NCBI GenBank assembly: GCA_046290225.1
Contig: JBKAGE010000074.1
Coordinates: 1 to 64,000 of the forward strand
Source of the DNA: Bradymonadia bacterium
GTDB lineage: Bacteria > Myxococcota_A > Bradymonadia > UBA7976 > UBA1532
Length of the DNA: 64,000 nucleotides
Direction of reading: 5' to 3'
The notes beneath the pieces are model-generated. The model saw only the letters and a list, made by a program, of their open reading frames with translations. It was not told the DNA's origin and did not search any database. Shown here piece after piece: positions 40,289 through 60,484 of the stretch. The translations under genes were made by a program, and so were the position numbers. Numbering within the stretch: the stretch's first letter is position 1; every line of letters begins with the position of its first letter.

Positions 40289-40330
40289 ATGAGCAGGGCT
40301 ACCTATGAGATGAGCAGGGCTGCCTATGAG
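40289..40330. repeat. 21-bp tandem duplication ATGAGCAGGGCT(A/G)CCTATGAG x2
   Basis: Read directly; one mismatch; intergenic. Confidence 0.85.
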
Positions 40331-40382: not shown

Positions 40383-41237
40383 CTATGTCGTCGAGCGCAT
40401 CTGTGCTCGGATCTGACGTTCAGACAACAAGTAGTATAGCCAGTCAGTCATCAGTGGGTCATACAACGCTTCGGCTCCCACCTCTGCTGTCTCTTTGTCA
40501 GGTTGCCTGAGCCTGAACTTGAGGCCGCTCAGCGTCTCAATCCAACGGGCGACGAGCGATTCTGGATTGATGATGAGCTCGTCAGGCTCAGGGCTGTGTT
40601 CAAGGTCTCGAGCAACGCCACGCAGACTGTTGGTGACCAATGGGGAGCTGTGACGGACCTTGACGACTTGAGGTGTCTCTCCAAAGGCGTCATGCACTTT
40701 ACCACCCATGGCGAGAATCAGGTCTGGCTTGAGCACATCAAGTTCCAGGTCTACGTATCGTCGAGCATATTGGAATGCGTCTTTGGGCGGGTTCTGATCT
40801 GTTCCGCTCTTGGTCTGATATGACCATTTTACAAAGTTGGTGAACACTGCGTTCGAGGTCACGCACCCCACTGACTGATGGAATCCTCTCGACTCCAATG
40901 TGCGCAGAGCGAACCCGGTCAGAATCTGGGCGTGCAGTGTCTGCCATGGTCGTATACCGAGGGTCCTCTCCTTGCTCTCCCATCTGGCGTAGAGCCGGCG
41001 TGCGCCCTTGTCTTTTGAGCTGGCGTACCTGCGCACCTCGGTGCGATGACCTGCCAGGTTTTGAGCCATGCTGTAGAAGGCGACACGGGGTCTCCTGGGG
41101 TTGTCGTCGTTCAATGGGTAGGCTTCACCTACAAAGGGCAGATAGGATCTCAAGCTTGGCCCGATGAGGTTCTCGGAGGGACGCCCTGAATCTAGTCCTT
41201 CGAATTGCTTGGCCAATGAGCTGAGCGCCTCGTGCAT
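40383..41237 (-). CDS. Uracil-DNA glycosylase superfamily-like protein
   Basis: PFVGEAY, VFTNFVK, ELDVLKPDLILAMG, VRHSS fit UDG-fold motifs; visibly more AT-rich than flanking host genes. Confidence 0.6.
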   Translation of the reverse strand: MHEALSSLAKQFEGLDSGRPSENLIGPSLRSYLPFVGEAYPLNDDNPRRPRVAFYSMAQNLAGHRTEVRRYASSKDKGARRLYARWESKERTLGIRPWQTLHAQILTGFALRTLESRGFHQSVGCVTSNAVFTNFVKWSYQTKSGTDQNPPKDAFQYARRYVDLELDVLKPDLILAMGGKVHDAFGETPQVVKVRHSSPLVTNSLRGVARDLEHSPEPDELIINPESLVARWIETLSGLKFRLRQPDKETAEVGAEALYDPLMTDWLYYLLSERQIRAQMRSTT

Positions 41238-41351
41238 GGACTGCGCCTTAGAGCATGATGTGGAAGAAGCTTAAGGAGCGCAGAAGCGCCTGAAGGACAG
41301 ACTCTGAAGAAGCACTGAGCATGGAGAGCGATGTTTTATGGAGTAGGGGGC

Positions 41352-41381
41352 CTACTGCCCAATCCCATATTTCTCCAGCTT
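41352..41381 (-). other. Left attachment site: displaced 3' end of the response regulator (KLEKYGIGQ*)
   Basis: Matches 59075-59104 (KLEKYGIGS*) codon for codon; identical core TCCAGCTT at 41374-41381 and 59097-59104. Confidence 0.85.
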
Positions 41382-41488
41382 TTTTGCCGACGGGTCGCAG
41401 GTGGGGAAGGCAGCCCCATAACCCACCGAAATCAGGTATTCCCGACCGGCGCAAACCGGCATGAAGTGGCGTGAACAAGCCCCATCTC

Positions 41489-41517
41489 GTGGACACCATG
41501 TGGACAAGGCGTGGACG
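41489..41517 (+). repeat. Putative integrase arm-type sites GTGGACA/GTGGACA/GTGGACG, 11-bp period
   Basis: Copies at 41489, 41500 and 41511; same motif and period at 59016 and 59027. Confidence 0.7.
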
Positions 41518-41742
41518 AGTTGGTCGCCGAAGTGATCGCCACCGCAGCCAATGCGGGTCGGGATCGAGCGCACCGGCATCCGGCAGGCGGACATCACCCG
41601 CCAGGAGTACATCACCTGAGCCCGGAACACGCAGATGATGTCCTTGCGCAGCCTCCCCGCCGACCTCAAGGCGATGCTCCTCGCCGAGCACGAGGAGGCC
41701 GAGGGCTGGAACATCCGTCGGGCGCTGCGGAAGGTGCGATGA
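41511..41742 (+). pseudogene. Possible degraded small gene
   Basis: Coding-like codons split by a frameshift and a TGA (VDELVAEVIATAANA / GIERTGIRQ..EYIT*ARNTQ..RKVR*); family not recognised. Confidence 0.3.
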
Positions 41743-41749
41743 GCACCGA

Positions 41750-42547
41750 CTACGGGAAGGCGATCAGGTCCATCGCCTTCAATTCGCCTTCCACTGCCTC
41801 AAGCTCTGCCCGGAGGCGTTCGTACTCCATGACCTCATCGGCGTGGGCTGTTCGCACTGCTGTCCGGCATTCGTCGAAGGCTCCCTCAACTTTTGCCCAG
41901 TGCTCATGAAGGAGCGGCGTGAGCCAGTCCTTCTTGGTTGCGTGGGCATCCTTAATCCTCGCCATGTGAGCCGCCACCCCAGCATCCGAAGTTGGCAGCA
42001 TCTCTTCGACAGCGGCAAGGGTGCGGTCAGTCAGTAGGGGGCACAGGACCAATCCTTCACCCTCGGCGTGCCACTTCGTCCGTTGCTCCACGTTGAAACT
42101 GTCGATGACCGGAGGGGCATGTTGCTGTCTATTGCGGAGCGCCAACATGATCCTGTAGGGCGACGACTTCTTCATGTGATCCGCCCGCCTGTGAACATCT
42201 CTGAGCAGACCCGGCGAGAACGTGGCCTTGCCGTTGTTGTATAGGAAGTCCCGTCCAGCCGAGACGCTTGCCAAGTAGTTCCCGAAGTGGAAGAGCACAT
42301 CGGCTCGCATGGTCACAATCTGCTGGCGGATGTTGCTCGGATCGGGTGAGAGGGCGTCCAGCAGCAGGTCACGGTTTCGCAGCATCCACGCCAACTGATC
42401 TTCGGCAGCCCAGAGGAAGTCGAGGTTCTCGAAGCCGCTGATCAGCCGATCACGGATCGCAGCCTCCCGCTTCATCAGTTCGGACACTTTCGTGTAGTCC
42501 AACAGCGGCTCGGCCATCAGGAGCTTCGGTTCCTCCTCGTTGCCCAT
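41750..42547 (-). CDS. Hypothetical helical protein with a HEPN-like R-x4-H motif
   Basis: LRNRQQH at 42119-42136, preceded by NYLASVS..RD. Confidence 0.55.
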   Translation of the reverse strand: MGNEEEPKLLMAEPLLDYTKVSELMKREAAIRDRLISGFENLDFLWAAEDQLAWMLRNRDLLLDALSPDPSNIRQQIVTMRADVLFHFGNYLASVSAGRDFLYNNGKATFSPGLLRDVHRRADHMKKSSPYRIMLALRNRQQHAPPVIDSFNVEQRTKWHAEGEGLVLCPLLTDRTLAAVEEMLPTSDAGVAAHMARIKDAHATKKDWLTPLLHEHWAKVEGAFDECRTAVRTAHADEVMEYERLRAELEAVEGELKAMDLIAFP

Positions 42548-43045
42548 CGTCCCCCCATGTTTTAGTTCGGCCCCGTGCGGGTTGGTCTCCCAGAACCGCA
42601 GAGAGCCCAACTATGCTACACAAGGCCCACAACACCAAGCCCAGCCGACCCCACCCCACCTCTACCAAAGATCACCGACCGCATCATCGCCGCCCTCGCA
42701 CAGGCCACAGCAACGTAGGCCCGCCCTTGGAGCACAGCACGAGAGCCTGGCCCGCAGCGCAACGGCTCGGCAGGTCACGAACAACGGTTCAATGTTTGAG
42801 AGGGGCCTCTGAGTACGTAGTTCCAGGCACTTAGCAGGGATCCTAAACCCCAACCCCAGCCCAAAACGACCCCGTTCGACCCTCAATGGGGACAAAACCG
42901 GGGACAGCTCAGATCATGACGTTTAACCACTGGTGGCTGGGCAGGGAAGCTGTGAGCCACTGAGCAGACAGGGGCTCAACCTCAAAGAGCCTAAGACCCC
43001 ATGATAGCTGGCTACCGGAAATCAGAGTCTCGTCTTTGATACCAA

Positions 43046-45064
43046 TCACCCCAGCCGTCGAGTCAAACCGACAAGCACCTTCTCGCAGATGCTCAGCGTC
43101 TCGTCGGAGGGCTCTTTTCCTTCACGCCACGAGTCCACCAGTGACATCACCACAGTCGCCTTTTCCTGGTGCGTGAACTCACCCCAACCACTCTCTTTGT
43201 AGATAGCTTTCAGGAACTGGACATTGTTCTTTGCAGCACCCGCTTTCGCCTTTTTGGGTTCGGCGCCCTTCAGACTCTCCACTGTCGCCAGCAGCTCATC
43301 CCGGGTGATGATGTCCTCAACCTCCACGCCAGGCTGACCCAAGAGGTCGCCATCGGACATCAGAGCCACTGCACCATCTTGTGGTAGAAGCTCCTTCTTG
43401 AGGGTGGTGGCCTTGTTGAGCCCAGCCTTGTCAGCGTCCAGGAGGACAACAAGGCTACGACTGTCATCGTCAGGCCGGGCAAACATGGAGACCAAGGGCA
43501 GCATGTGGGAGGTGCCCCCAGCAAAGAGAATAACGACATCATCGGGCAAACCGGTTCGGCCCCGCTTCACCAACTCGGCTGACAGTGCCTTGAGCAACCA
43601 GTAGTCGGTGATCCCCTCGACGATCAGGGTCTTCTTCCCGAGGAAGAGGGTCTGCGCCAGCTCGTACCCGAGTGCTGCTTGCAGCGGGAGGACCGTTGCC
43701 CTATCCCCCATGGGCTCCGTTCCATGCGACACCTTGGTGTGGCTCCGATCGCCCTCCTCTGCCGCCACCAGGTACACCGTTCTGACATTGTCCAGGTTGG
43801 CGGGATCCACCAGGAACGGGGAGTGAGAGGAGTACATAAGCTGGTTCTTCTTCGACACCTCCTGGAAGAACCCCAGCAGCTTCTCCTGGGCCGTGATATG
43901 GAGATGGAGCCCCGGCTCATCGAGTAGGAGTATGGCCCCTTGGTGGGCTCGCTTCGACTCGACCAAGAACGTCAAGTAGAACGAGAAGAACCACTGAAAG
44001 CCCCTGCTTCGCTCCTGAAAGTCGATGGACCAGGGGTTGAGATTGTCGGAGACCTTGAGGACGAGATCCTCGCCATCGGCATCGAACTTGAGCTGATGCT
44101 GCCGCTGCTGGGGCCACCACTTCTTCCAGTCGCCGCTGAGCCCAAACGAGGCCGACTCAAGCAGCGTGCTTCTTTCCTCCTTCCTGCGGTTCACGTCCTC
44201 CTGGGGTTCGTTCTGCTGAGCCGGACCCCCCAGCGTAAGCAGCTCCTTCGGATCCAGCCGTGCCCACTCGAACAGCGCCATTCGAGTCCGAGCCAAGCGG
44301 TCGTGCGGTGTCCGGGCAACTTGCCTAAGATGCTCTGGAAGGTGGATACGGGTGCCGAGCACGCCGTACTCATCGAAGTAGATGAAGGCAGGCTGTCGGT
44401 CCAACAGCCAGTCATTGACTGCCGCTCGGTGCTCCTCCTTGGAGCGGTACCCCGCCAACGCTTCAAGCTGCTCGGCGGTTTCGGTTCCGCCCAGTGCATC
44501 ATGGTGGGTGCGAACTTGCCGAACGAGGGCAGTGCTGGACAGCCGTACCGCCTCGGCATCATCTGCGGTAAGCGCCTCCGATAGCTGCTCCGCATATTGC
44601 CGGACCGGAGCGAGTGGATCTGGCTGGCCCTCCTCTGGGACTTGGACCCTCTTATTCAGCTCCTTCAACGTCTTTAACAGAGACGTGGTGTCCATCTGCT
44701 CGAAGCCCACCTCGAAGGAGGCTGTTCGAGTTCCATCGTAGGCGGTCTCGATGCAGATGTCCGAGGGTTTCGTCCCGCCTACCTCCTCGGCGTAGGCTTC
44801 GACATCGGCGTCCTCGAACTCGTACTCCAAGCTCGTGACGATGGGGTTCGTGCCCCGTGCCCTCGTGTACCCCTCCTTGGGGTAGTCGTAGAGCATGTCG
44901 AACTCGACCTCCGACACGTTTCGGGACTTCCAGAGAGCCTGAAGAACGGCGGACTTGCCGCTCTCGTTTTGCCCCAGAAGGCAAGTGACGCTCTTCTTAA
45001 CCTCGACCCTCCCGGAGTCCCGGATGGTCTTGAAGTTCTGAACTCTAAACGCTTTCAGCCGCAT
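43046..45064 (-). CDS. OLD-family ATP-dependent nuclease (ABC ATPase + TOPRIM)
   Basis: VQNFKTI, GQNESGKS, LLLDEPGLHLH, SSHSPF, TOPRIM VEGITD and LDAD. Confidence 0.88.
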   Translation of the reverse strand: MRLKAFRVQNFKTIRDSGRVEVKKSVTCLLGQNESGKSAVLQALWKSRNVSEVEFDMLYDYPKEGYTRARGTNPIVTSLEYEFEDADVEAYAEEVGGTKPSDICIETAYDGTRTASFEVGFEQMDTTSLLKTLKELNKRVQVPEEGQPDPLAPVRQYAEQLSEALTADDAEAVRLSSTALVRQVRTHHDALGGTETAEQLEALAGYRSKEEHRAAVNDWLLDRQPAFIYFDEYGVLGTRIHLPEHLRQVARTPHDRLARTRMALFEWARLDPKELLTLGGPAQQNEPQEDVNRRKEERSTLLESASFGLSGDWKKWWPQQRQHQLKFDADGEDLVLKVSDNLNPWSIDFQERSRGFQWFFSFYLTFLVESKRAHQGAILLLDEPGLHLHITAQEKLLGFFQEVSKKNQLMYSSHSPFLVDPANLDNVRTVYLVAAEEGDRSHTKVSHGTEPMGDRATVLPLQAALGYELAQTLFLGKKTLIVEGITDYWLLKALSAELVKRGRTGLPDDVVILFAGGTSHMLPLVSMFARPDDDSRSLVVLLDADKAGLNKATTLKKELLPQDGAVALMSDGDLLGQPGVEVEDIITRDELLATVESLKGAEPKKAKAGAAKNNVQFLKAIYKESGWGEFTHQEKATVVMSLVDSWREGKEPSDETLSICEKVLVGLTRRLG

Positions 45065-45201
45065 CTGCTCTCCCCATGCTTGTGCCCAGACGACCCGGCA
45101 ATCAACCCGTTGTCAATACAACATCGCACCGCAACGGCTTGGAGAGTACACCACACCCTGACGGTAGGCAGCCTGTCCCCTGCATGGAGAAGGAAGCTAC
45201 C

Positions 45202-45399
45202 ATGCACGAGCCCATCCCTCTCTCCGACCTTACGCCCATCCTCAACGAATACCCCGGCCTGCAAAGGGTTTGGTTCATCCAGGGCCTTGCAGATGCCCTC
45301 GCCGTCCCAGTGATGGTCAGGCTGCCCGACGAGCCTTAGACCAACATCAAGTTGTTCGAGGAGGAGCTCGCAGAGATGACCCCCGGCTACTTGAGCTGA
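45202..45399 (+). pseudogene. Small hypothetical ORF with internal TAG (45337-45339)
   Basis: AGGA SD; coding-like codons continue past the TAG to a TGA. Confidence 0.35.
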
Positions 45400-45659
45400 T
45401 CGGGCGAGCACACCCGGAGCCGCCCCCGGTTCCGAGCTGCAACCTGCTCGACGTTGTACCAGATGCAGTCGTCGTCCTTGCAGACCTCGACCCACTCGCC
45501 TTCTACTCGGGTGACGGGGCCCACGGCGTAGCTGCTGGTGCAAGGACTGCTGTCGGTGAAGTAGTCACCGGGCTAAACGGGGTTGGGACTGCCGCTGGTA
45601 CAGGCGGTCGCAATCGCAGCGGCGAAGATGAACCCAGCCCCCCACATTGTCTTCATCAT
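45387..45659 (-). pseudogene. Small lipoprotein gene with premature TAG at codon 29
   Basis: MMKTMWGAGFIFAAAIATAC lipobox; TAG at 45573-45575; frame continues PGDYFTDSSPC..VCSPDQLK*. Confidence 0.6.
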
Positions 45660-45685
45660 GAGCTTTTTCTCCTTGTTCACGAGCC

Positions 45686-46615
45686 TCAGTCGAGGCGCAG
45701 GACGACCTTCTTGGTGTCCATGCCGAGGCGGACCCGAGACTTGGACTTCCCAGCCTTCTTCGGGACCCGCATGTTCATCTGTTGGGTCTCAACGCCGTCG
45801 CCGTCGTAGGTGGTGACAAGCACGAGAGCCGCCCGGAAGCCCCGCTTGAAGTCCATGGTGACGTGGCACATGCGCTTGTCCCTGAAGGGCTTGTCGCAGG
45901 TGATCTTGTTGATCGTGGCCACACCGGAGATGGAGGGGGTCAGCTCCCACTCAATGCCCACCTTCTTGACCTTGATGGTCTCGGCGGGCTCCTGGCCCAC
46001 GTCCAGGTTGAACGTCTCGATGTCCACGCCCTGCTTCTTCAGGATCCCACAGCCCTTCTCGTGTCCAGCCTTGCAGGCTGCCACCATCGTCTTCAGGCCC
46101 CACTCCGGATCCCTTGGGGCGTCTCCAAGGCCGGTCATGGCGTAGGCCCCCGTCTGGAAGCACCCAGCCTGATCACCGAGCTTGCACGCCTTGTTGAAGT
46201 AGCCCAGGGCGGCCTCATGGTTCTTCTCGACGCCAAGCCCTGAGTGGCTCACTTCACCCGCCCAGCGGCACGCACTCGCCATGGACCTGTCCAGGCAGGA
46301 CCTCGCCAAGAGCATAAAGCCGGTGTCGCCCCGCTCCTCGGCCACCCAATGCTGGCCGAGGATCACGCACGCCTCCTCTGACCCTCTGTGGCAGGCTCCA
46401 CCCAGGAGCAGCTCTGCCTTCTCAGTAGGGCCGCCTCCCGGCTCCCACTCAGCACTGGCCGCAGCAAGGCAGGCTTCCGCCGTCTTCGTCCCACAGGGGT
46501 GATCTTCTTGTTTGGCCGCAGCCTCATCGGTCTGCCGATCGGTGGCCGTCTTGTTGGCGCACCCGTGAATGACGATGCCCCCCAACAGAGCCACGTAGAT
46601 GATGTTCTTGCTCAT
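45686..46615 (-). CDS. Sel1-like repeat lipoprotein
   Basis: Lipobox IHGC; GLGVEKN..AALGYFNKACKLG..GC repeats. Confidence 0.85.
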   Translation of the reverse strand: MSKNIIYVALLGGIVIHGCANKTATDRQTDEAAAKQEDHPCGTKTAEACLAAASAEWEPGGGPTEKAELLLGGACHRGSEEACVILGQHWVAEERGDTGFMLLARSCLDRSMASACRWAGEVSHSGLGVEKNHEAALGYFNKACKLGDQAGCFQTGAYAMTGLGDAPRDPEWGLKTMVAACKAGHEKGCGILKKQGVDIETFNLDVGQEPAETIKVKKVGIEWELTPSISGVATINKITCDKPFRDKRMCHVTMDFKRGFRAALVLVTTYDGDGVETQQMNMRVPKKAGKSKSRVRLGMDTKKVVLRLD

Positions 46616-46743
46616 ACGATCTGGTCCTTCCTCTGAGGCCGACATAGCCACGACGACCAGAAATGATCAAGCTCAACACTTGACCAAAGTTGATATGGAG
46701 GGAGCACCCCTCACGAAGGACCTTTGACGCAGGAGGTCCTTTG

Positions 46744-47094
46744 ATGCCCCGAGCACGCAAAGACAGAGAGCTGCTTCAGGCTGTAGGCGCACGGGTAGCC
46801 GCTGCCCGGCGTGATCGGGGTTTCACCCAGGAAAGTTTGGCTGAGGCTGTCGGGGTCGAGCCCGTGACCCTTTCACGCTGGGAGACCGGCGACAGGGCCC
46901 TCTCCCTCACTACCCTTGCTCGGGTTGCGGGGGCTCTCGGTGTTGGCATCGGGGACCTTCTCGATACGACGAGGGCCCTCCCAAAGATCGAAGTCGCTCC
47001 CGAATACTTGGAACTGGCCAGGACCTACGACGCTATGACTGAGCCTCGCAAAGCCCTCCTCCTCAAGCTGGCCCGAGAGCTGGCCAGGGGCTGA
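46744..47094 (+). CDS. XRE-family HTH regulator
   Basis: R..RGFTQESLAEAVGV....LSRWETG; AGGAGG SD. Confidence 0.9.
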   Translation: MPRARKDRELLQAVGARVAAARRDRGFTQESLAEAVGVEPVTLSRWETGDRALSLTTLARVAGALGVGIGDLLDTTRALPKIEVAPEYLELARTYDAMTEPRKALLLKLARELARG

Positions 47095-47109
47095 CCCCGA
47101 CCCCGGCGG

Positions 47110-48003
47110 TCACGGTTGGCGGGCCTCACGAGGCCCCCATACGGCCTCAAAACCTCTTGATGTCAGCTCGACGCCCAATATCTGGTTGTTGCCGGGCACG
47201 TCCTCATCCAACTCGACAGCCAACCTGATGAAGCCCCCCGTCATCAGGGACCCCTCGCCCTCGAAGTAGCGCCGCCAACGGAGGCGAGTATCGAGGCCCT
47301 CGGGATCCACCAGGGTGATCATGTCCTCTACGCTGGGGCTCACGGGCGTGATGCCCAGATGGTCGAGGGCCCTCTGAGCGATGCCGTGGCTGAGAGCCGC
47401 CAAGCCGAGGGCAGCCAAGATGAGGATCTCGTCGTCATCCAGGCCCTGCTCACGGCGCAGGTCATCAAGGGGCAGCGGGCAGCCTTTGGCCTCACGGTGG
47501 GCGGCGAGACGGGCCTCCACCTTACTGGTATGGGTCATCTCTGCGATCCAGAGATCCATGACCTTGTCCTCGCTCGGCGGGTTCTTCATCCAGACGACCG
47601 CTTTCCCTTGGCTGGCCAAACGTTGGCACCGGAGGTCGAGCAGGATCAGGCAGTCGTCCATGAACTCGCCGTTGCTCTCGTAGGGCTGACGCTGGTTGAT
47701 GTAGGGCCTAACCTTGAGCAGTCCACGCCCATGTACCCCCACGGCCCACCCCACATCGAGAGCCACTGCTGAGGAGGCATGAAACGCTTCTTCAGCAGCG
47801 AGTTGGTCGCCGTCCGTGATGGCCTGCTTGAACCTCGTCCTGGCCTCGATGAAGCGGTCCTCACTCGACAGCTTGAAGTCCAAGGTGTCGATGGGCGGCG
47901 GGATCATGACGGTCGGCTCGATGCTCATCCGGGCCCGCAGCGTAGCCCCGATGGCGGTGTCCAAGTCGTCCAGGATCTTGACGCTGTCGTCGGTCATCTT
48001 CAC
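47110..48003 (-). CDS. Hypothetical protein; C-terminal half resembles winged-helix regions found N-terminal to AAA ATPases
   Basis: AAGGAGG SD before GTG; PLDDL....GLDDDEILIL..F....L...G.I pattern (weak). Confidence 0.55.
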   Translation of the reverse strand: MKMTDDSVKILDDLDTAIGATLRARMSIEPTVMIPPPIDTLDFKLSSEDRFIEARTRFKQAITDGDQLAAEEAFHASSAVALDVGWAVGVHGRGLLKVRPYINQRQPYESNGEFMDDCLILLDLRCQRLASQGKAVVWMKNPPSEDKVMDLWIAEMTHTSKVEARLAAHREAKGCPLPLDDLRREQGLDDDEILILAALGLAALSHGIAQRALDHLGITPVSPSVEDMITLVDPEGLDTRLRWRRYFEGEGSLMTGGFIRLAVELDEDVPGNNQILGVELTSRGFEAVWGPREARQP

Positions 48004-48395
48004 GTCCTCCTTCGTCTCAACGCTCGTCCTGGATACTGGTCAGCTTCCCCTGGATTACCGTGCGAAGTCACAAAGCTGCTGAATCAAATATGGAGGCGGT
48101 GAGCAGGATCATCGTGAGCGAAGGTTCCAGTAGTCCAGCAGGTAGTGCCCTGTTGATCGGGGGGTCCTGGCTCCGGCGTCAGCGTGAGTCATGCTGCAAA
48201 CCACGTATCTCTGTTTGAAGGTTTCGCCTTCTCCTCTCCCTTGAAAACCCAATGTTATTGGGTCTATCAGACTCCTCCAATCAACGCATAGACCAACCAT
48301 AATGTAGGGATTCACAAATCCAGGCGATCCCCCTATTGACTGAACACCTGTCCACGTGGCGAGATAGTGACACAACCATCGACCTGGGGGGTCAC

Positions 48396-49538
48396 ATGAG
48401 CACAGACAACTTCTTCAACGAGACAACTCCGCAATCAACCGTAAAGGCTATGATCGTCGAGAACTACTTCTCAGCCTGGGCGAGGATCATGGTTGGTACG
48501 CAGAACCGCCCAGGCTACCGTGCCAAGAAGAAGATCGGCTACGTGGATCTGTTCGCCGGACCTGGGCGCTACAAGAGCGGTGCAGTTTCGACGCCTCTAC
48601 GAGTGCTCCAAATGGCTTTGACAGAACCGGAACTCTGTGAACGGCTACTGACGATCTTCAACGACAAGGACGACGAGAACGTGCACACCTTGGAGCAGGA
48701 GATCGACGCCATTGAAGGGATCGACCGTTTGGCGCATAAGCCGCAGGTCTGGAATCAGGAAGTCGGAGACAAAATCGCAGCCGACTTCGAGAGCATCAAC
48801 ACCGTCCCACTCCTGGCTTTCGTTGACCCCTGGGGCTATCGGGGTCTGACCCTCCGTCTGGTCAATGCGTTCCTCAAGAGTTGGGGATGCGACTGCATCT
48901 TCTTTTTCAACTATTCACGCATTAACGCTGGTCTCAGCAACCCTTACGTCAAGGAGCACATGGCCGCTCTCTTCGGCGAGGAAAGGGCCAAACGGCTTGC
49001 GACCGAACTTGCCCCGATGGCTCCGGCAGCACGAGAGGCGACTATCGTGAATGAATTGGCGCTCGCCCTCCAAGAGCATTCAGCAGGAAATCAGCGACGC
49101 TATGTCCTTCCGTTCTGTTTCAAGACCGCATCCGGTCGCCGCACGAGCCATCACTTGGTGCTCGTGACGAAGAGCTTCAAGGGCTACGAGGTCATGAAAG
49201 ATATCATGGCAAAGGCCAGCAGCTCGAACCACGATGACGTACCCAGCTTCACTTACAGCCCAGCAACCGGCCCTGAGCAGATGCTCTTGTTCAGACTTAA
49301 CAGCCCACTCAACGCCTTACGGGGATCGCTGATGACCGACCTTGCGGGTCGCACTATGACCATGAGGGATATCTACAAGGAACACAGCGTAGACACGCCC
49401 TACCTGGCTCGGAACTACAAAAAGGTCCTTCGGGATTTGGAGGATGAGGGCGTGATCTTGACTAAGGGCCGTCGTAGCAACCGTGGCTTTGCCGACAACA
49501 TCGTGGTGTCGTTCCCACCACGAAATATGGGAGCTTGA
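48396..49538 (+). CDS. tcmP: Three-Cys-motif partner protein (SAM-dependent methyltransferase-like fold)
   Basis: [26 protein letters not shown]; immediately upstream of a DUF5131 gene. Confidence 0.82.
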
Positions 49539-49540
49539 GC

Positions 49541-50257
49541 ATGGCTCAGTCATCTATTGAGTGGACCGAATCCACATGGAATCCCGTGACTGGTTGCAAC
49601 AAGGTCAGTCCTGGCTGTAAGTTCTGCTACGCCGAGGTGATGGCAAAACGCCTCAAGGCGATGGGTCAGGCCAACTACGTCAACGGCTTCGACCTCACAA
49701 TCCAACCTCATATGTTGAACCGTCCACTGTCCTGGCGGAAGCCACGGGTCATCTTCGTCAACTCGATGTCGGACTTATTTCATGCGGATGTGCCCCTGGA
49801 TTACATCCAGCAGGTGTTCGACGTAATGAAGCGGGCCCACTGGCATCAATTCCAGATCCTCACCAAGCGGGCCGAGCGTCTGGCGGAGTTGTCCTCGGAG
49901 TTGCCCTGGCCAAAGAATGTTTGGATGGGTGTGTCCGTCGAGACAGATGCCTACACCGACCGAATTGACTATCTCCGGAGGACGGGCGCTCACATCAAGT
50001 TTCTCTCGCTGGAACCCCTACTCAGCCCCCTCTCGAACCTCGATCTGAGCAACATCGACTGGGTGATCGTGGGAGGCGAGTCTGGCCGCAAGCCCCGCCA
50101 AATAGATGAAGCTTGGGTAACCGATATTCGTGACCAGTGCCTCCGTGCGGAGGTTGCTTTCTTCTTCAAACAGTGGGGTGGTACGAATAAGAAGAGGGCA
50201 GGGCGGACTCTGCAAGGGCGGACTTGGGACCAGATGCCTGGTGCCTCAACCCTTTGA
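49541..50257 (+). CDS. DUF5131 / phage Gp37-Gp68 family (Cx6Cx2C, radical-SAM-like)
   Basis: [63 protein letters not shown]. Confidence 0.93.
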
Positions 50258-50274
50258 AGCTGGGCCGATATCTG

Positions 50275-50559
50275 ATGGAAGCCCACCCCCTGACTGATCT
50301 CTTCCCCACCGTGGGGCGAGACGATCTGCAAGTCCTCGCAGCCAACATCGTCGCCAACGATCTCTACCACCCCAGCCTCATCTACGATGACCAGGTGCTC
50401 AACGTGCGTAACCACCTCACAGTCTGCCAGCTCGCTGGGGTGGGGCTTCACTTCGAGATCGTCACCGGTACTTAGGCCGATGCTCTCGCCCTCTCGTTGA
50501 TTCTGGCCCACAGGCGCCTCTCTACGGCCCAGAAGACTACTCTCATGGGTGACTCCTAA
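50275..50559 (+). pseudogene. Degenerate ParB-N-like gene
   Basis: HPL.DLFP....L..LA..I.AN.L..P..Y..QVL..RN...C.L.G pattern, with DGRNR decayed to NVRNH and an internal TAG at 50473-50475. Confidence 0.55.
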
Positions 50560-50802
50560 GCCTGATTAAGAAAAGGGCGCCAGAGGCCATCAGGGAGCCC
50601 GCAAGGACCTATCCCCTACAGGAGGAAGAGGAAGGCTCACCCTTCCCAGGGCCAGGGCATTCATCAACCCCTCGATGAGGCAGCCCACCAGCGTGGACCT
50701 CAGCGAATAGATGCACCACCCGTAATCAGGGAGCCCCCCGGGAGTATACAGATTGCGCTGGGATTCTCCCGGTGCAGGGACACTCACCGGGGACCAGACC
50801 AA

Positions 50803-52263
50803 ATGCTCACCTTGCACGACCGCATCCATGATCTCACCGGGCACGACATCAACAGGGCAGCCAGCCTGAGTACCCAGGACGTACAGGGGCTCCTTCTTCA
50901 AGCCGCCGAGCACGACGCCAACGGCAATGCCCGCAGGCTGCTGGTCGCTGCCAAACTCAAACATCTCCTGGATGTCCATCGGGCGAGAGGAGGCCGGATG
51001 GCGGACTTCGTCCAGTCACAGCCCTTCGGCCTGGGTCGGTCATCGATCTACAAGTTCCTCGCCGCCTTCAAGGCGATCCAGGCAGCAGACGATATCCCCG
51101 ACGATCTGCTGAACGTGCCCTTGGGTCAGATCCCCCACCGCTTGGGGCAACCCAGCAGCCCTCCACGCAAGACTCAGCGGACCATGGGCATCGGCGAGAT
51201 CGAGAAAGCCATCCAGGTGCTGCATCGAGCCCTGGCAGACCAACTGAGAGCCCACTCCGAGGTTAAGGGGCTTGCCCAGCTCTACGAGGTCCTGGGTGAC
51301 ATCCTCCACCCACCCGCTGCCAACGATGACGATGCTGAGGCTGTCGACCCTCATGAGAGCGTCAAGAGTGCCCCACGGCCCCAAACTCCCCAGATCAAGT
51401 CCAGCCGGAAAGCTAAGATCAGCTTGATGCCAGGGCTCTTCCCCCAGCCGGGCGGGAAGAGATGCTCCGCCCGTGAACTCCTGGGCCGGATCGGCCAACT
51501 CGGGCCGGAAGAGGTTTTTGTAGAGCCCTTCCTGGGTGGTGGTGTGGTGGCCCTCAACATGCTGAGATGGGGCCTCGCCAGCCGTGTTCGACTCAACGAC
51601 GCTGATGCAGCCGTGGCCGCCTACTGGACGGCGGTGATACGTCAGCCCGAGGCACTGGCATATCGCATCCATGGATGGGAGTGCAGCTTCGAGGCTGCCT
51701 GTCAGGCGATGAAAGCTCTTCGGGCTGGCACACTCGAAGGGGTGGACCTTGCCCTGGCGCACCTCATCTCTCGGAGAACCACCTTCAGGGCTCTTGGGCG
51801 TGCTGCCGGGAGTCCCTGCAAGAAGAACCTGGACATCAAGTGGAAGCCCGACTGTGACGTGGACAACCTGTGGGAAGCACACAGGGTCCTCAAAGGCCAG
51901 GTTGTGGGTGATAGATGTACATCCTCCCACGCCATCGACGTGCTGTCCGAGGGCGGACGCAAGTTCGCCTTCCTCGATCCGCCCTACGTCGAGCAGGGGC
52001 CTGACATGTACCGAGATCGGTTCTCCGTCCACGAGCATAAACGGTTGGCCCAAGCCCTCCATCAGGCCGATTACCCCTGGCTGGCCTGCTACGATGACGC
52101 CCTGCTGATCCGAAAGCTGTACGACGGGAGCGTCCTCGACAGGGTAGCGGTGTCGCACACCTCCACAGCGGTAAAGGGGGGCAAAGGCAAGACCCGCCGC
52201 CCTGAGCTGAGAATCTCCCACAGGGTTACGTCCTCAAGCTCTATCGAACGGTTGGCGGCGTAG
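50803..52263 (+). CDS. Dam-type (D12) DNA adenine methyltransferase with ~200-aa N-terminal extension
   Basis: PGGK, FVEPFLGGG, LNDAD, FLDPPY, H.RLA..L, W..CYDD...IR.LY. Confidence 0.88.
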   Translation: MLTLHDRIHDLTGHDINRAASLSTQDVQGLLLQAAEHDANGNARRLLVAAKLKHLLDVHRARGGRMADFVQSQPFGLGRSSIYKFLAAFKAIQAADDIPDDLLNVPLGQIPHRLGQPSSPPRKTQRTMGIGEIEKAIQVLHRALADQLRAHSEVKGLAQLYEVLGDILHPPAANDDDAEAVDPHESVKSAPRPQTPQIKSSRKAKISLMPGLFPQPGGKRCSARELLGRIGQLGPEEVFVEPFLGGGVVALNMLRWGLASRVRLNDADAAVAAYWTAVIRQPEALAYRIHGWECSFEAACQAMKALRAGTLEGVDLALAHLISRRTTFRALGRAAGSPCKKNLDIKWKPDCDVDNLWEAHRVLKGQVVGDRCTSSHAIDVLSEGGRKFAFLDPPYVEQGPDMYRDRFSVHEHKRLAQALHQADYPWLACYDDALLIRKLYDGSVLDRVAVSHTSTAVKGGKGKTRRPELRISHRVTSSSSIERLAA

Positions 52264-52923
52264 GAGCTCATGTAGAGTCCCCTGGGCTCAGTGTGGGAAG
52301 ATCTATGGAGCTGTGGACAAGGGGTGGGCAGACACAGGGGGCAGCTCAGGAGCCAGGAAGCTCATCAGGTCGTTGACGGACTTTCCAAAGCCACAGGCCA
52401 TGACTCTCAAGGTCTGCTTGGCCAGGGTCTCGGAGATGATGCATAGGGTGACGGCCACCAGGATGCTCATCTCAGGGGCGCCCAGGCCGAGTTCAGCTTG
52501 CAGCAGTGCGAGCCCCAGCTCCACCCATTAGGATCGTGAAGATGAGCCGGGGGGCGTTCTTGCAACTTCTCCCAGGCCCGGTCCCCTCTGGCCTGCCAGT
52601 GCCTGGGCTTGCTCTCATTGAATTGGGCCTTCCGTAGGGCCCTCACCTCATCGAGCTGAGGGCCCTTAGCTTCGACTCTCAGCCGCTTGAACCTCAGTAG
52701 GTGAGCAAGTCGTGCTGTTACTCGGCGTTGGTCGTGAACGTCCATCAGGGCCTCCGTCTGGTGGGACAGGGGGGCCTACTGGCGACAGCGCCCTCGACTA
52801 CCTTGGGATGGGCCGAGTCCCGGATTTCGGGACCTGCCGTCCGAGTGACGGGACACCCCTTCCCTGTCTCGGGATTGGCTAACCGAGATAGGCCGAGGGT
52901 GTCTTCTCAACGGGACCATATTT

Positions 52924-52984
52924 TCAAGTAGGGATCTCAAGTAGGGCTACCAAGCCAGGACCTAAGTAGGGCATCCAAGCTGGG
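52924..52984 (+). repeat. Five ~13-bp-period iteron-like repeats (consensus approx. YCAAGTAGGG)
   Basis: TCAAGTAGGG at 52924 and 52937, CCAAGCCAGG at 52950, CTAAGTAGGG at 52962, CCAAGCTGGG at 52975. Confidence 0.65.
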
Positions 52985-53170
52985 GGGAGGATTGCTCCTT
53001 CGGGGAGATGGGTGTGGTCGGGGTTCATGAAGGGGATCGGCTACCCCTACCCCAAGAAAATCGCTCCGAGGGGGGTGTGCCTCGATGTCCACCGAGTAGG
53101 TGAGCAGGGGGCCGGGAATACCGGGTCCACCAACACCTACAAGGGGCCAAAGACCCCGAAGGAGCCCATC

Positions 53171-53362
53171 ATGAAGGACACCAAGGTCATCTCTGTGAGG
53201 ATGCCTGAAAGCCTGCTCGCCACCCTGGATGAGTTGAGTAAGATCGAGGCAGAGAAGATCGGCAAGGCCAGCGCCGTCAGCGTCAACATCTCCCGGTCGG
53301 CCATCGTCAACCAGCTCATCGAGCTGGGCATCGAGTGCTGGAAGGAGGCCCAGGATGGCTGA
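53171..53362 (+). CDS. Ribbon-helix-helix (CopG-like) protein
   Basis: AAGGAG SD; VISVRMPESLL..LD.L....SRSAIV..LIE.G. Confidence 0.75.
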   Translation: MKDTKVISVRMPESLLATLDELSKIEAEKIGKASAVSVNISRSAIVNQLIELGIECWKEAQDG

Positions 53363-54449
53363 CCAGAAGACCTACGCCTGGGGGGAGATCGTGACCCTGG
53401 GCAGCCTGCGGGTGGGCTCCACCAGGGAGCGGCTGATCCAATTCTACCGGATGCTCGGATCCCGGCCTGGCAAGATTACCATCTACACCCCCGAGCAGAT
53501 CGCCAAGGTGATCGGGATCGACGACACTAAGCGAGAGTCGGCTGCCCGGAAGATCCAGAAGGTTAGGAGCGAGCTGGTGGCCAAGGGCATCCTGGAACGG
53601 GTGGAGGACCCCAGCCACCTTAGCCAGGACGACACGCCCATCTACTCCTGGCGGACCGTGGACCCCGAGCTGGATGCCGAAGCCTTCGAGATCCTGAACC
53701 GTAAGGCTCCCGCCTGGCGGCAGTACATCATCCAGGGTGAACAGGCCTACTGGAACCTGCGTGCCCTGGTGGACAATATGCCGAGCGTGGCCATGCTCAC
53801 GTACAAGGACGATAGGATGGCTTGGCACGACGCCTTCCCCGAGCTGGTGGATTTCAAGAACACGGACATCATCAACCTGTGGGCGAATAAGGTACCCAGG
53901 GCGATCCGCAGCAAGAAGCACCCTCTGGCCTCCCGGCTGGATCACAGGGGTAAGTGGGTCGGGATCGAGGACGAGGACATCCGCCTGCAAGTGGCCCTGT
54001 TGGGCATCGACAAGCTGATCCAGGATCGGCTGTCGGGGAACCCGAACTGGGTCGAGACTATCGAGAGTCCTGTGGGCTGGCTCCTCTCGACCCTGGGCAA
54101 GGTCGGTAGCCCCAAACACCCTGACTGCGATCCGAAGGTCACGGCGTCCCAGGTCGAGCAGTTCCTCATGGAGTGGCAGGGCTGGTACCTCACTGACTTG
54201 GCCAACGAGGCCCTGGAAGACCAGACCCCCGAGCGGTTCAAGAAGACTGACGAAGAAGGCGAGGAGAGCCTCGATGAAGGCCCCGAGGGCTTTGCAAGGG
54301 ACAAGATCCAGGGTGAGCCTGAGAAGGCCACCAACACCACTGCTGCGCCGCCTGACAGGGACAACCATCTGAACTATGAGGACAGTGGTGAAGTGGACAT
54401 GGACGACATCGAGAGGGCTTTGGGGGAGATCATGTCGCAGGATGACTGA
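53355..54449 (+). CDS. Hypothetical protein, candidate replication initiator (N-terminal winged HTH)
   Basis: Overlaps the RHH gene with a GGAGG SD; QIAKVIG..RKIQK..SELVAKGILE wHTH pattern. Function inferred from context. Confidence 0.5.
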   Translation: MADQKTYAWGEIVTLGSLRVGSTRERLIQFYRMLGSRPGKITIYTPEQIAKVIGIDDTKRESAARKIQKVRSELVAKGILERVEDPSHLSQDDTPIYSWRTVDPELDAEAFEILNRKAPAWRQYIIQGEQAYWNLRALVDNMPSVAMLTYKDDRMAWHDAFPELVDFKNTDIINLWANKVPRAIRSKKHPLASRLDHRGKWVGIEDEDIRLQVALLGIDKLIQDRLSGNPNWVETIESPVGWLLSTLGKVGSPKHPDCDPKVTASQVEQFLMEWQGWYLTDLANEALEDQTPERFKKTDEEGEESLDEGPEGFARDKIQGEPEKATNTTAAPPDRDNHLNYEDSGEVDMDDIERALGEIMSQDD

Positions 54450-54530
54450 GGGGGGGGTCTGCGGGAGCCTTGGCTGGGTATTACAAGTGAGGCCCCGATT
54501 TTCGGGGCGAACACCACGGCGGAGGTCACC

Positions 54531-54722
54531 ATGCCCACCATCGAGATCACCCTGACGGCTGACCAGAGCGTGCGGTTCGACGGCACCAAGATCGTCATCA
54601 CCGACTTGGCCGTCACCAAGCCTCCCGAGATGAGCTTCAATATCGAGGCCCAACCTCTGTTGAGTAGGCCCTCGAAGCACCGCAAGACCCGCAAGCATTC
54701 CCTGGCCCTGGCCACCCGATAG
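54531..54722 (+). CDS. Small hypothetical protein
   Basis: GGAGG SD before ATG; coding-like 5' half. Confidence 0.45.
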   Translation: MPTIEITLTADQSVRFDGTKIVITDLAVTKPPEMSFNIEAQPLLSRPSKHRKTRKHSLALATR

Positions 54723-55333
54723 GAGGTCCAGAGTTAGGCTCTGAGAGGGCCTGACAGATCCTCTTGGAGTCCGACGACCACTTTGACATCGAGGGTCACA
54801 GCAGGGTCTACAACGGCCCACAAAGCCAGGGAGGCTGCGTGTTCCTCCTGCTGAATGAGGTGGGGCAGCCGATCCACGACAACTTCCAGGTAGTGACGGT
54901 TTTTCATATTGGCCTCCTATCCCTTGCGTCCTCATAGGACGACCACCTCGATCATCGAACCCGCACGCAAATCGAGATCGGGCTCTCGGTCATCGAGACC
55001 GAAACCATCAACGGGGGTGGTGAGGGTGAAGGTGAGCCCGAAGTGTGGGGCCTGATGCCCATCGGCAACGGGTCCAGACCCCTGGGGGTTGGGACGGGTT
55101 TCCTGGCCCGGCTGGCCGCCTGCCCAGCTTCGGGGGTCATAGGGTCCCAGCAGCCCCAACCAAGATACTCACCCCACCAGCGCCCCATCACAGCCCGACG
55201 CAAGCTGCAGCGTTGATCACGAACAAATGCCTGTGCCGGATGTAGCTCCGAAGCAGCGTCATAGAGTTGTGCCCCGTCTGGTTCATGATCGCCATCTCAC
55301 ACCGCCCGGCCCTAGTGGCACGGGCTACCTGAA

Positions 55334-56050
55334 TCAGGCAGGCCGGGCTGCCCCAGCCTTCGAGGTCCAGCGCCTCAAGTGATCTGCAAAGGTCTGGCTG
55401 ACGCCGTCCTCGTGTCGGCCAACCACCTGAGCGAATTCCTCGAAGTCGATCACGTTGTCGTCCCCCACCTCCTTGGTGGGCTGGATGTAGATCACCTCGA
55501 TGTCAAACTCGCCGGGCCCCACGGTAACCCTGCTCTTACGCAGTAGCTCCCCCAGCCCCGACCTCCCCTTCGGAAAGATGAAGTCCATCAGTTCAGCGTG
55601 CAGGGAGAGGCAGCCGTGATCAGCCAAGGCTTGGAGCAGATGGGCATACTTTTGACGGTACGTAGATTTGGTAACCAGCACGATCTCGATGAGGCCCTCA
55701 AGGAGCGCCGATATTCCAACCTCCTTAGCCCGACGCAGGTAGTCGTCCTGTTTGTCCCTACGGCTCCCGATATCCGTCTTCAACTCGACCATGTAGAGCT
55801 TGCTGCGGTCTGCGGCAAAGGCAACGTAGTCAACCTGTACGGAGTGCCCAGTCGACTTGTGGGACCCGATTAACTCCCTCTTGATGGGGAACTCAGGCAC
55901 GAGGCTCGGGCTCACGGGGACTCCCGTGACCTCCTCCAAGACCTCGACCAAGTACAACGAGAAGAAGATGTCAGCCCGACGCTCAAGCTGATAGGCGGGC
56001 AGATGCCGCCAGCGATCCATATGGCTAAAGAGCTGCTCGATGCGATTCAT
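55334..56050 (-). CDS. PD-(D/E)XK-like nuclease candidate
   Basis: PEFP..VDYV....MVELKTD..Q..YL matches the E..D..ExK arrangement. Confidence 0.6.
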   Translation of the reverse strand: MNRIEQLFSHMDRWRHLPAYQLERRADIFFSLYLVEVLEEVTGVPVSPSLVPEFPIKRELIGSHKSTGHSVQVDYVAFAADRSKLYMVELKTDIGSRRDKQDDYLRRAKEVGISALLEGLIEIVLVTKSTYRQKYAHLLQALADHGCLSLHAELMDFIFPKGRSGLGELLRKSRVTVGPGEFDIEVIYIQPTKEVGDDNVIDFEEFAQVVGRHEDGVSQTFADHLRRWTSKAGAARPA

Positions 56051-56118
56051 GCTGGCAAGCATAGGTCGATGTTGAGCAGTTCCGCCACGACAGCTTTCGA
56101 GCTGGGTGTCCCTAAGCC

Positions 56119-57213
56119 CTACAACTCGATGTGCCGGGCGGCGCACTCCTCAGCCAGGGCGCCCTCCTCGATGTACCCCTTGAGGACCCGACTCCCCGGG
56201 CTGTGGCCCGTGGAGCGGGAGATCTCGGCCTCGCTGGCCCCGAGCCTGGAAGCCTCCGTGCAAAAGCCCCGGCGCAAGCTGTGCCCGCTGAATAGTGAGG
56301 GGTCCAAGGAGGCCCTGGCTGCCAGCCTTTGCACCATCCTTGCGATGCCCCGCCCTGAGAGTCTCTCGAAGCCTCTGGCTGCCCGGTCGAGGCGGATGAA
56401 AAGGGGGCCCTCCTCGTCTCCCCGGATCACCAACCAAGCTCTGAGGGCCCTCACAGGACAAGCCTCCTCCCGAGCTTGATAGGGGGCCAGCACGTCCCGC
56501 CCTCGGCCGAGCTGATCGGTCTTGCTGCGACGGAGATGGAGTATCACCCCCTCTGGCTCGAAAGTGATGTCCCCGAGGTCCAGGGCGGCGATCTCTGAGC
56601 GTCGGAGACCGGTGAGGAACCCGAGCAGCAGGATCGCCCGATCCCTGGTATCGACGGGCAGGCCCCCGAGTACATCCAGGCAACGGCGAACGTGAGACAC
56701 CCGCAGGGCCTTCTTGGGGGACCTCCGCTCACCCTTGACCCGAGCGATCCCGGCCATCGTGAGCCGCACTGCCTCATGCGTGGTGGGGCTGTCGAGTCCA
56801 CGGACCTTGTGGACGACGGAGATGGCGGCCAGGTGCTTCCGCAGCGTCTGGGGCTTGAGCGAGTCAGCAGAGTCAGCCACGTAGGCCGCCACCGTCTGTG
56901 GGGAGGCCGGTAGGGCCGGGAGAGACCTCATGGAGCACCAGACCTCGAACCTGGACCACGCTGACTTGTAGGTCCGCAAGGTTGAGTCGGCCCTTGAAGC
57001 CTTGGCGTACTCTCGTGCCTTCTCTACGACCTGTGGGCTGAGCCCTTGACGAGGGCCCCCTTCGAGGGCCTTGCCGGTGGTGGTGTCAGGGACCTTGTCT
57101 TCGGGGACCTCGGTATGAAGCCCCTCTTCATAGGGGACTTCACCCTTTGGGGGGCTTGCTCGAACCAGCAGTTGGTTGCCCTCTCGATCACCCCTGATCT
57201 TGCCATCGTCCAT
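56119..57213 (-). CDS. Cre-like tyrosine recombinase/resolvase
   Basis: RDRAILLLGF.TGLRRSE, RSKTDQ.G.G, CPVRAL, SGHSLRRG, TGH, GY; GGAGG SD before ATG 57213 (start tentative). Confidence 0.9.
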   Translation of the reverse strand: MDDGKIRGDREGNQLLVRASPPKGEVPYEEGLHTEVPEDKVPDTTTGKALEGGPRQGLSPQVVEKAREYAKASRADSTLRTYKSAWSRFEVWCSMRSLPALPASPQTVAAYVADSADSLKPQTLRKHLAAISVVHKVRGLDSPTTHEAVRLTMAGIARVKGERRSPKKALRVSHVRRCLDVLGGLPVDTRDRAILLLGFLTGLRRSEIAALDLGDITFEPEGVILHLRRSKTDQLGRGRDVLAPYQAREEACPVRALRAWLVIRGDEEGPLFIRLDRAARGFERLSGRGIARMVQRLAARASLDPSLFSGHSLRRGFCTEASRLGASEAEISRSTGHSPGSRVLKGYIEEGALAEECAARHIEL

Positions 57214-57734
57214 CTCAACCTCCATGGGGCCGAGAACATCCACTTCTCGGCCCCATGGATACTGGGCAGCGGCCCGTGGATTACAGGGCCCTGATGGTCC
57301 CCTCACCGGGGCATCCGAAACCGCTCGGAAAACTTCCCGGGGCCCCCAGGCGATCCAGATCTCGGATGTAAGGTCCGCACCCAAAAAGCCAAGGGCTGAG
57401 AATCCGGTTTGCGGAAGACGGCTTTTGAGGCTGTGGCGAGGTTGCTCATACCCATCTTCAGTCCCATCGAGGCGTCGCCCAGAGCGTGCAGAACGGGGTC
57501 AGCCACTTTCTTCGAGGAGGGCGTAATCAGAGAGGTCGAGATCAGTATGTAGTGTGAACCCAAGGCCGCCCGGCTGACGCCATCCCAGGTCTGAGGAGCA
57601 CGTAGCCAGTCAAGTAGCCCGGTTTCGCTGGAAGGCCCCCAAGATGGTCGAGGGGGGTCGCCCTTCCTGTGTATAGGAGTGGTCTCGATATAAGCGGCGA
57701 TCACTCCATCAACCTTCCTCCTATCGAGGCTGTC

Positions 57735-58127
57735 ATGCAGACACTCGCAACTAACTCGGAGGTCGAGAAGTTCTTCGGGATTGCACCCAGAACACTGCGG
57801 GCGCTGTGTGTTGACTCTCGGCAGGCAGGGATTGAGATGCCATCTATAGGTATGGGGCGTCTTCGTCGGTGGACGGGTGGGCCGGAGTGCTGGATGGCAT
57901 GGTACGACAAGGTGGTAGCATGGCGAGCATCAGGAAGCGTGGCAGCACCTATCAGGTCCGCTGGCGGGACCTTGAAGGCATCGAGCGGGGGCAGAGGTGC
58001 CCGGACCTTCAGACGGCGAGACGGGTCAGGCTCGAAGTTGAGCAGGCACTCGCAGTTGGCAAAGACTGGCGACCCCGAGATCGTGCTGATCCACCCAGCC
58101 TCTCTGAGGTCTTCCAACAGTACCTGA
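57735..58127 (+). CDS. Excisionase-like small HTH protein overlapping the integrase start
   Basis: T..EV.KFFGI.PRTL..L....MP.I.MG.LRRW pattern; position directly before int. Confidence 0.55.
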   Translation: MQTLATNSEVEKFFGIAPRTLRALCVDSRQAGIEMPSIGMGRLRRWTGGPECWMAWYDKVVAWRASGSVAAPIRSAGGTLKASSGGRGARTFRRRDGSGSKLSRHSQLAKTGDPEIVLIHPASLRSSNST

Positions 58128-59056
58128 CCGAGATCGCCAGAAGGGTCAAGGACACTACCGCCGAGCAGTACCGTATTGCCCTTCGGCTCTTCTTGGTTCA
58201 CCTGCGCCAGGAGAAGCCCCAGGGTACCCTTCAACCGGCGCTGCTTAAGGATGAGGTGTTGGGGACCTTCTTTGACAGTCTCCTGTCGACCAACAACCGA
58301 TCCAGTGCCGCTGATGCCGTTCGGCACGTCCAGAGGGCTTGGCGCTGGGCCTACCGAAAGAACCGACGCTTCGGCGGGAGTGTGCCGCCGCCTGAAGAGA
58401 TTGAACTGCCTCAGCGAGAGATTCTCCTGCGACCGTGGGCTCCTTCGTGGAGCATGGCAGACGAAGTCATCTGGGCGGCTTGGTCGGCCAAGCAGGCCAA
58501 ATGGTACGGCGACTTCCTGGCGCTGCTGCGGTACACGGGACTCCGAAAGTCGCAGATCATGAAGCTCCGCTGGTCCGATCTCGACTTGACGAACTGTCAA
58601 CTCTACATTCGCCCCGAGCTGGGAAAGTCCAAGCAGGAGGCCCGTGGTAGGACGATCCCGGTCACGCCTCACTTGGTCGAGTTGGTGAGTGGCTGGGATC
58701 GCCACAGCGATTACCTCGTGGCCACGGACAAGCCACAGCGGCGGATCGATAACATCACCCTTCGGAAACGGTGGGAGGCGGCAGGGATTGAGCCGGAGGA
58801 TCTGCGGCAGCCCACACACTCATTCAGGAAGATGATCGTGTCGGAACTGAGGAAGGCCAGGGCGGACCCGATGGCCGTCAAGGCTCTGGTCGGCCACCAA
58901 CTCGACATGACCGCTGACGTGTACACCACGTTCGAGGCGATGATGCCACTTATGGAGGAAGCCGTCGGGCACATCCCAAAGATTGGTGCCGGAGACAGCA
59001 ACCTCGTACCACTTCGTGGACACCTCGTGGACACGAGGTCCAATGCCGGTGGCTAA
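57920..59056 (+). CDS. int: Tyrosine integrase of the element
   Basis: MASIRKRG..YQVRWR arm-binding N-terminus, YTGLRKS, SK, HSFRK, LVGH, VY; ends 41 bp from the core. Confidence 0.92.
   Translation: MASIRKRGSTYQVRWRDLEGIERGQRCPDLQTARRVRLEVEQALAVGKDWRPRDRADPPSLSEVFQQYLTEIARRVKDTTAEQYRIALRLFLVHLRQEKPQGTLQPALLKDEVLGTFFDSLLSTNNRSSAADAVRHVQRAWRWAYRKNRRFGGSVPPPEEIELPQREILLRPWAPSWSMADEVIWAAWSAKQAKWYGDFLALLRYTGLRKSQIMKLRWSDLDLTNCQLYIRPELGKSKQEARGRTIPVTPHLVELVSGWDRHSDYLVATDKPQRRIDNITLRKRWEAAGIEPEDLRQPTHSFRKMIVSELRKARADPMAVKALVGHQLDMTADVYTTFEAMMPLMEEAVGHIPKIGAGDSNLVPLRGHLVDTRSNAGG
59016..59033 (+). repeat. Putative arm-type sites GTGGACA x2
   Basis: Copies at 59016 and 59027, inside the int 3' end. 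Confidence 0.7.
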
Positions 59057-59074
59057 GGCTCTGAAATTACTTGC

Positions 59075-60484
<1,410 letters not shown>

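Follow-up and report, generated by a model that had tools for sequence, protein, structure and literature searches.

The window, that is, the whole stretch of 64,000 nucleotides of DNA analysed here, contains a gene for an NtrC-family sigma54 response regulator whose last codons are occupied by one end of a mobile island of 17,723 bp; the other end of the island lies at a second copy of the same gene tail (Table 1). As the earlier note had claimed, both 30-nt tails read on the minus strand (59075-59104 and 41352-41381), the offset between them being 17,723 bp, and their longest identical stretch is a core of 8 bp that is present at both ends. The seven mismatches comprise five third-codon positions within codons 3-8, all of them synonymous, and two positions in the last sense codon, which specifies serine in one copy and glutamine in the other. 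Its further expectation that a DNA repeat search would miss the pair was mistaken, as the tails were reported as repeat family D11 (32 nt, 78% identity, spacing 17723), one among at least 60 such families. Sites coding for KLEKYGIG number two in the whole genome of 8,582,528 bases and both fall within the window, where an order-2 Markov model gives a chance expectation of 1.3e-7 per 64 kb. The copy at 41352-41381 is an orphan that ends no regulator; similarity stops upstream of its core, where the sequence is unlike the regulator. The GC content of the island is 0.606 in comparison to 0.638 and 0.640 in the flanks, and a search of both island ends for promoter- or terminator-like sites found none.

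Table 1. Features of the island, its ends and the adjoining DNA, in order of position in the window.
Feature	Position	Strand	Basis or remark
Halogenase (WelO5-type), FeeM-like/cNMP-binding protein and flavin monooxygenase genes	36477-40232		adjacent genes
Uracil-DNA-glycosylase-superfamily gene	40383-41237	minus	just past attR; GC3 0.64
Displaced original host tail, Q-stop	41352-41381	minus	1 nt from nearest orthologue tails; on empty-site contig
attR identity core, 8 bp	41374-41381	minus	identity block and empty-site contig
Second doubled TGTCCAC repeat	41489-41506	minus	co-oriented with the first; 107 bp from attR core
OLD-like ABC-ATPase plus TOPRIM protein, defence-like	43046-45064	minus	domain matches
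Cro/C1-type HTH repressor	46690-47094	plus	family matches
TcmP (three-Cys-motif partner) plus DUF5131 pair	48336-50257	plus	PADLOC candidate system PDC-M30 A and B
Dam/D12-type adenine methyltransferase, N-terminal extension	50803-52263	plus	family matches
Possible replication initiator (lead only)	53355-54449	plus	Atlas HTH_36/DnaD-like clusters at 0.90-0.91
Second tyrosine recombinase, possibly a resolvase	56119-57384	minus	domain matches
Likely excisionase-type small HTH protein	57735-58127	plus	overlaps integrase start
Tyrosine integrase, 378 aa	57920-59056	plus	3' end faces attL; stop 18 bp from regulator stop
Doubled TGTCCAC repeat, likely arm site	59016-59033	minus	63 bp from attL core; in last codons of integrase
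Island-supplied replacement tail, YGIGS-stop	59075-59096	minus	not on empty-site contig; 4-8 nt from every orthologue tail (n=28)
attL identity core, 8 bp	59097-59104	minus	codons K461-L462-E463; inferred crossover zone
NtrC-family sigma54 response regulator, 469 aa, host target	59075-60484	minus	Pfam receiver, AAA+ and HTH_8; last codons island-supplied
Probable lipoprotein, 943 aa	60525-63356	minus	directly upstream of regulator; Gly/Ala-rich linker, no Pfam family

The unoccupied form of the site was found in public sequencing data, where three runs contain 8-9% of the host-flank words. In one of these, a seawater metagenome (run X3), the empty site is seen on a single contig of 211 nt at a depth of 3.4, in which 41283-41373 runs directly into 59097-59216, exactly 17,723 bases are omitted and 8 letters fit either side of the junction. 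An uninterrupted attB is thus present in a relative, and the join of 41373 to 59097 across the 8-bp core is the one that the earlier note had predicted; rather than presenting a different junction, the DNA lacking the island closes exactly on the core. The tail of this contig is the Q form, as proposed for the unoccupied site. In comparison to the window, the contig has 9 mismatches over 120 regulator positions, each in a third-codon position by frame, and 3 over 91 flank positions. These mark a different strain and hence an unoccupied site, not excision; no circle junction was present among the assembled contigs. Additional matches in the same run to 40200-40300 (3 differences) and 41131-41284 (1 difference) indicate that the DNA beyond attR is common to the X3 strain. 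A contig of another relative (run X1) also carries a regulator tail with a Q-stop, followed by unrelated DNA. Since the flanks are joined at the core with a Q tail in X3, the segment 41352-41381 is host-derived and 59075-59096 is island-derived. Comparison of eight codons across 28 orthologue tails likewise identifies the 41352 copy as the displaced host end, as the nearest orthologue is 1 nt from this copy and all are at least 4 nt from the copy at 59075.

The integrating enzyme is likely the tyrosine integrase beside the junction, a second recombinase also being encoded on the island. Residues R209, K236, H300, R303, H326 and Y335, which we take from general knowledge of the family to be its catalytic set, are invariant in 34 homologues. 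The small protein whose gene overlaps the integrase start gave no match above cut-off in Pfam; its nearest named Atlas clusters are DUF1233/HTH_17/Cox at 0.92-0.93, a similar open reading frame occupies the same place in the sister locus L026, and the protein may set the direction of recombination. The doubled TGTCCAC repeat occurs three times in the genome in comparison to a chance expectation of 0.54, with two of the three at the island ends, the chance of finding one no more than 300 bp from a chosen point being about 1e-5; near the third (C38:199401) there is no integrase homologue or tRNA. In the proposed mechanism, the integrase would bind these doubled repeats as arm sites and exchange strands within the 8-bp core. 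A TATT motif lies around the core in both host half-sites and in the attL island half-site and is missing from the attR island half-site, so the element may be decayed or its core sites asymmetric. The arm-like repeat at attL is itself encoded in the integrase C-terminus (GHLVD), and is flipped relative to its counterparts in tRNA-targeting relatives.

Homologues of this integrase are widespread in the phylum (35 of 401 genomes) and have several RNA-gene targets. Those with DNA context are 22-42% identical to the island enzyme. Signatures of tRNA or tmRNA ends occur at 12 of 28 homologous loci, and of 36 loci scanned with ARAGORN, 12 contain a tRNA or tmRNA gene; the sites are tmRNA (L027, L029, L031, L036, L040), tRNA-SeC (L041, L051, L054), tRNA-Ser (L034, L043) and tRNA-Glu (L044). 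The doubled motif of the island ends, in opposite orientation to the integrase gene, also lies beside 12 of the 28. The distant kin of the island integrase sit mostly at tRNA and tmRNA genes. The earlier note had asked whether homologues also abut the 3' ends of NtrC-family genes, and the answer was negative, as no sigma54 regulator lies close to any of 41 other loci (35 + 6), examined mostly over 1.5 kb of flank. Among relatives with context the closest is L026 (G004:C297; 42% identity), which adjoins an unrelated protein gene and ends near its stop. A TGA interrupts the integrase of L026 prematurely, its xis-int overlap is as in the island, and the locus possibly represents another protein-gene target; a displaced copy of its neighbour's tail was sought in G004 (89% complete) and was not found. 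Close homologues with context were absent from a metagenome scan (80 stretches; 4 loci, 34-39%), a GTDB scan (1 locus, 29%) and three viral scans.

A search of 112 other class genomes gave no second occupied site; the tail pattern is single-copy in 24 of them and absent in the rest. Nor was a second occupied regulator seen among 401 genomes of the phylum, 52 of which match the pattern; many of the genomes in both sets are incomplete. The two multi-match genomes among 400 of the phylum (G006 and G431) were rejected as second sites, their extra matches being an internal match and paralogues. An integrase of the same family is absent from 40 tail-match loci (up to about 4-10 kb around) and from the 1.5-kb flanks of the earlier loci. 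The tail pattern also matched five viral proteins, all rejected as unrelated, and a search with the arm-plus-tail pattern gave 0 matches.

These surveys bear on the claim that the integrase uses an NtrC-family HTH tail as its attB. The empty site does close at the HTH end; because an NtrC tail adjoins none of the other integrase homologues with context, the general form of the claim is drawn from one case. The reality of the island would be unaffected if the site were a one-off secondary or recently switched target, as the prevalence of RNA-gene targets among homologues, the unrelated protein gene beside L026, the lack of a sigma54 regulator at other integrase loci and the lack of a second tail copy in the class and phylum would suggest. 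However, an off-target insertion would bring no matching in-frame spare tail, and the accumulation of five synonymous changes implies a long-standing association with the activator gene. The island integrase also groups with its three closest homologues, P0002-P0004 (55-66% identity), in a fully supported clade (SH-aLRT 100, in a quick tree made without bootstrap), and the C-termini of P0002-P0004 keep the G-x-x-(V)-D pattern encoded by the arm repeat, which hints at a common attP layout. We therefore consider a one-off target somewhat unlikely. A possibility that we rate as slightly less likely than not is that the small clade formed by the island integrase and P0002-P0004 moved away from tRNA and tmRNA genes and took as its dedicated attB the end of the recognition helix of a sigma54 activator found across the phylum, converging with the unrelated integrases of fis PICIs on the same Fis-fold helix end. 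If this is true, integrases would have chosen the Fis-fold helix end more than once as a class of protein-coding landing site, and the recoded spare tail would hide such islands from mappers that depend on DNA identity.

The divergence of the spare tail is informative in its own right. In simulation, five random substitutions are all synonymous with P = 3e-5 to 3e-4, and protein-level selection is thus well supported. The helix end would be lost without the spare tail, and this is the likely reason for selection: the tail would be kept coding EKYGIG, as loss of the end of the recognition helix would leave a non-working regulator. The earlier note had placed this selection on the attP copy. Selection itself is upheld, and it may have acted in attP, in an earlier host, or jointly with DNA-binding constraints. 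The spare tail may instead have diverged mainly through DNA-level causes, namely integrase binding to the core sites, or through capture from the orthologue of another host. Some third-position changes could tune binding, as the island half-site beside the core shares TATT with both host half-sites; orthologue tails also differ from one another by comparable synonymous changes. Against this, the changes reach codon 8, past a plausible core site, the GGT at codon 6 is found in none of the 28 orthologue tails, and no orthologue is closer than 4 nt to the spare tail. Both routes, moreover, still require protein-level selection. A mainly DNA-level or captured origin is in our view somewhat unlikely.

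The target is a conserved gene, matched at E <= 1e-120 in 28 of the 41 genomes searched (the source genome counted), with orthologues in related genomes at 55-75% identity. Its Fis-type HTH_8 domain (Pfam) covers residues 428-465 of 469, and the crossover at K461-E463 lies at the end of this domain. The reading frame is whole after integration and retains the full HTH_8. The position that follows YGI/YGV is highly variable in the 18 orthologues whose tail is visible, with G, Q, P, S, T, an early stop or long acidic extensions; Q-stop ends occur in three same-family orthologues and two metagenome relatives. As the last residue is free to vary, the difference between S and Q is probably without effect, and since the occupied and empty products differ in this residue alone, the comparison suggests that the switch is likely neutral and activator function likely the same whether the site is occupied or empty. 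It could be argued that occupancy acts as a regulatory switch in which the S or Q end tunes DNA binding by the activator, given that the crossover falls within the recognition helix region and that the Q-stop recurs in the five relatives. The high variability of this position and the identity of the helix residues themselves in both forms make such a switch very improbable.

Taken together, the findings give us strong confidence that the island breaks into the final nine codons of a conserved gene for an NtrC-family sigma54 activator, that it makes this gene whole again with a tail copy of its own, and that the adjacent tyrosine integrase likely inserted it. Arrival of the block by homology-facilitated recombination with DNA of a relative, the integrase being a passenger, is scarcely credible, for although conservation of the regulator gene would suffice as an anchor for recombination, the shared identity is just 8 bp, spaced co-oriented repeats typical of the integrase family stand at both ends and the junction of the empty site coincides exactly with the core.

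We compared this island with known systems described in PMC10111431, PMC13626063 and PMC13626634. That elements supply a replacement gene end is well documented at icd and at tRNA genes (PMC10111431), and the replacement end at e14/icd includes synonymous differences (PMC13626634). The fis gene ranks among the two protein genes most often targeted (n = 8889; PMC13626063), with 3,565 islands mapped to it and PICIs inserting at its terminus (PMC10111431). The earlier note considered the target unfamiliar; the NtrC-type gene is apparently unreported, but the helix end of the Fis family is a well-known target class (PMC13626063, PMC10111431). Fis ends in KLKKYGMN-stop and the regulator in KLEKYGIG plus a last residue, so the targets are homologous helix ends. 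Like the fis PICIs of Gammaproteobacteria, the element is a tyrosine-integrase island, comparable to them in size, that occupies the final codons of a gene with a Fis-fold (HTH_8) domain (PMC10111431). Unlike them, it occupies the HTH of a 469-aa sigma54 activator, its shared block is 8 bp and lies four codons earlier, and its tail has diverged, whereas fis islands share a near-identical block of 15 bp from the Tyr codon (PMC10111431). Beyond membership of the superfamily, the integrases show no relationship (no BLASTP match at E<=1), with family-profile scores of 29-44 bits for 11 fis-locus integrases in comparison to 461 for the island integrase. At fis loci the integrase lies at the displaced-fragment end and faces inward; here it lies at the restored gene and faces outward. 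AlpA and phage late genes were not detected here. Identity as a fis PICI was accordingly rejected on the NtrC-family target, the earlier core, an integrase outside the fis/HE-PICI clade and the lack of AlpA or late genes.

The HE-PICI attP also has a doubled motif on each side of the crossover, the two being co-oriented and set at constant distances (81 and 132 bp away from its centre; the island repeats are 63 and 107 bp away from the core), although motif, integrase clade and target all differ (PMC10111431). As in e14 at the icd/icdC of E. coli, a replacement 3' end with synonymous changes and a few amino acid changes is swapped back upon excision (PMC13626634); there the gene is metabolic and the replaced segment longer, whereas here it is nine codons of a transcription activator. 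The tRNA and tmRNA islands of the same integrase family (tmRNA, tRNA-Ser, -SeC, -Glu) share a homologous integrase (30-42% identity), a target gene converging on the integrase 3' end and a doubled TGTCC-type repeat near the junction, but differ in their RNA-gene targets and in the opposite orientation of the repeat relative to the integrase gene. The mechanism (e14/icd) and the class of target domain (fis PICIs) are thus known. What appears to be new is an NtrC-type activator as the target of an unrelated integrase, an apparent convergence with fis PICIs seen in a single case; no earlier report of an NtrC-family integration target was found in the literature searched, the 2020 TIGER paper and the TIGER/Islander database lying outside that scope. 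As the mechanism is textbook, with 43.4% of 1.75 million mapped islands lying in protein-coding sequence (PMC12424338), the importance of the finding is modest unless a clade-wide target is shown. Nevertheless, a precisely mapped integrase and att pair from a marine lineage could serve as a site-specific tool without damage to its target. This lineage is likely within Myxococcota, since G004, a genome of the same family, encodes the protein P0006, which NCBI assigns to a Myxococcota bacterium. The use by an unrelated integrase of the same Fis-fold helix end as fis PICIs bears on how conserved protein-coding sites are chosen.

The cargo suggests that the island is likely a non-self-transmissible element of the defence type. 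Identity as a prophage was not supported, as none of 17 island ORFs matched head, tail or lysis genes in PHROGs; Phage_AlpA, capsid and terminase genes were likewise not found among the island ORFs scanned (Pfam; PHROGs, 17 ORFs), small ORFs being scanned in part. No family match to a relaxase, coupling protein or type IV secretion was found among the island ORFs, several of which are without a family, so a divergent relaxase is possible. The possible replication initiator had no match in Pfam, NCBIfam or PHROGs.

Beyond attR, the first 1 kb has a GC content of 0.548, a low value suggesting that the site may have received earlier DNA. The X3 strain also has the uracil-DNA-glycosylase-superfamily gene of this region, but in the X1 relative the regulator is followed immediately by different DNA; the gene may have been acquired earlier at this same location. 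Farther out, the adjacent halogenase, FeeM-like and monooxygenase genes form a possible small natural-product cluster.
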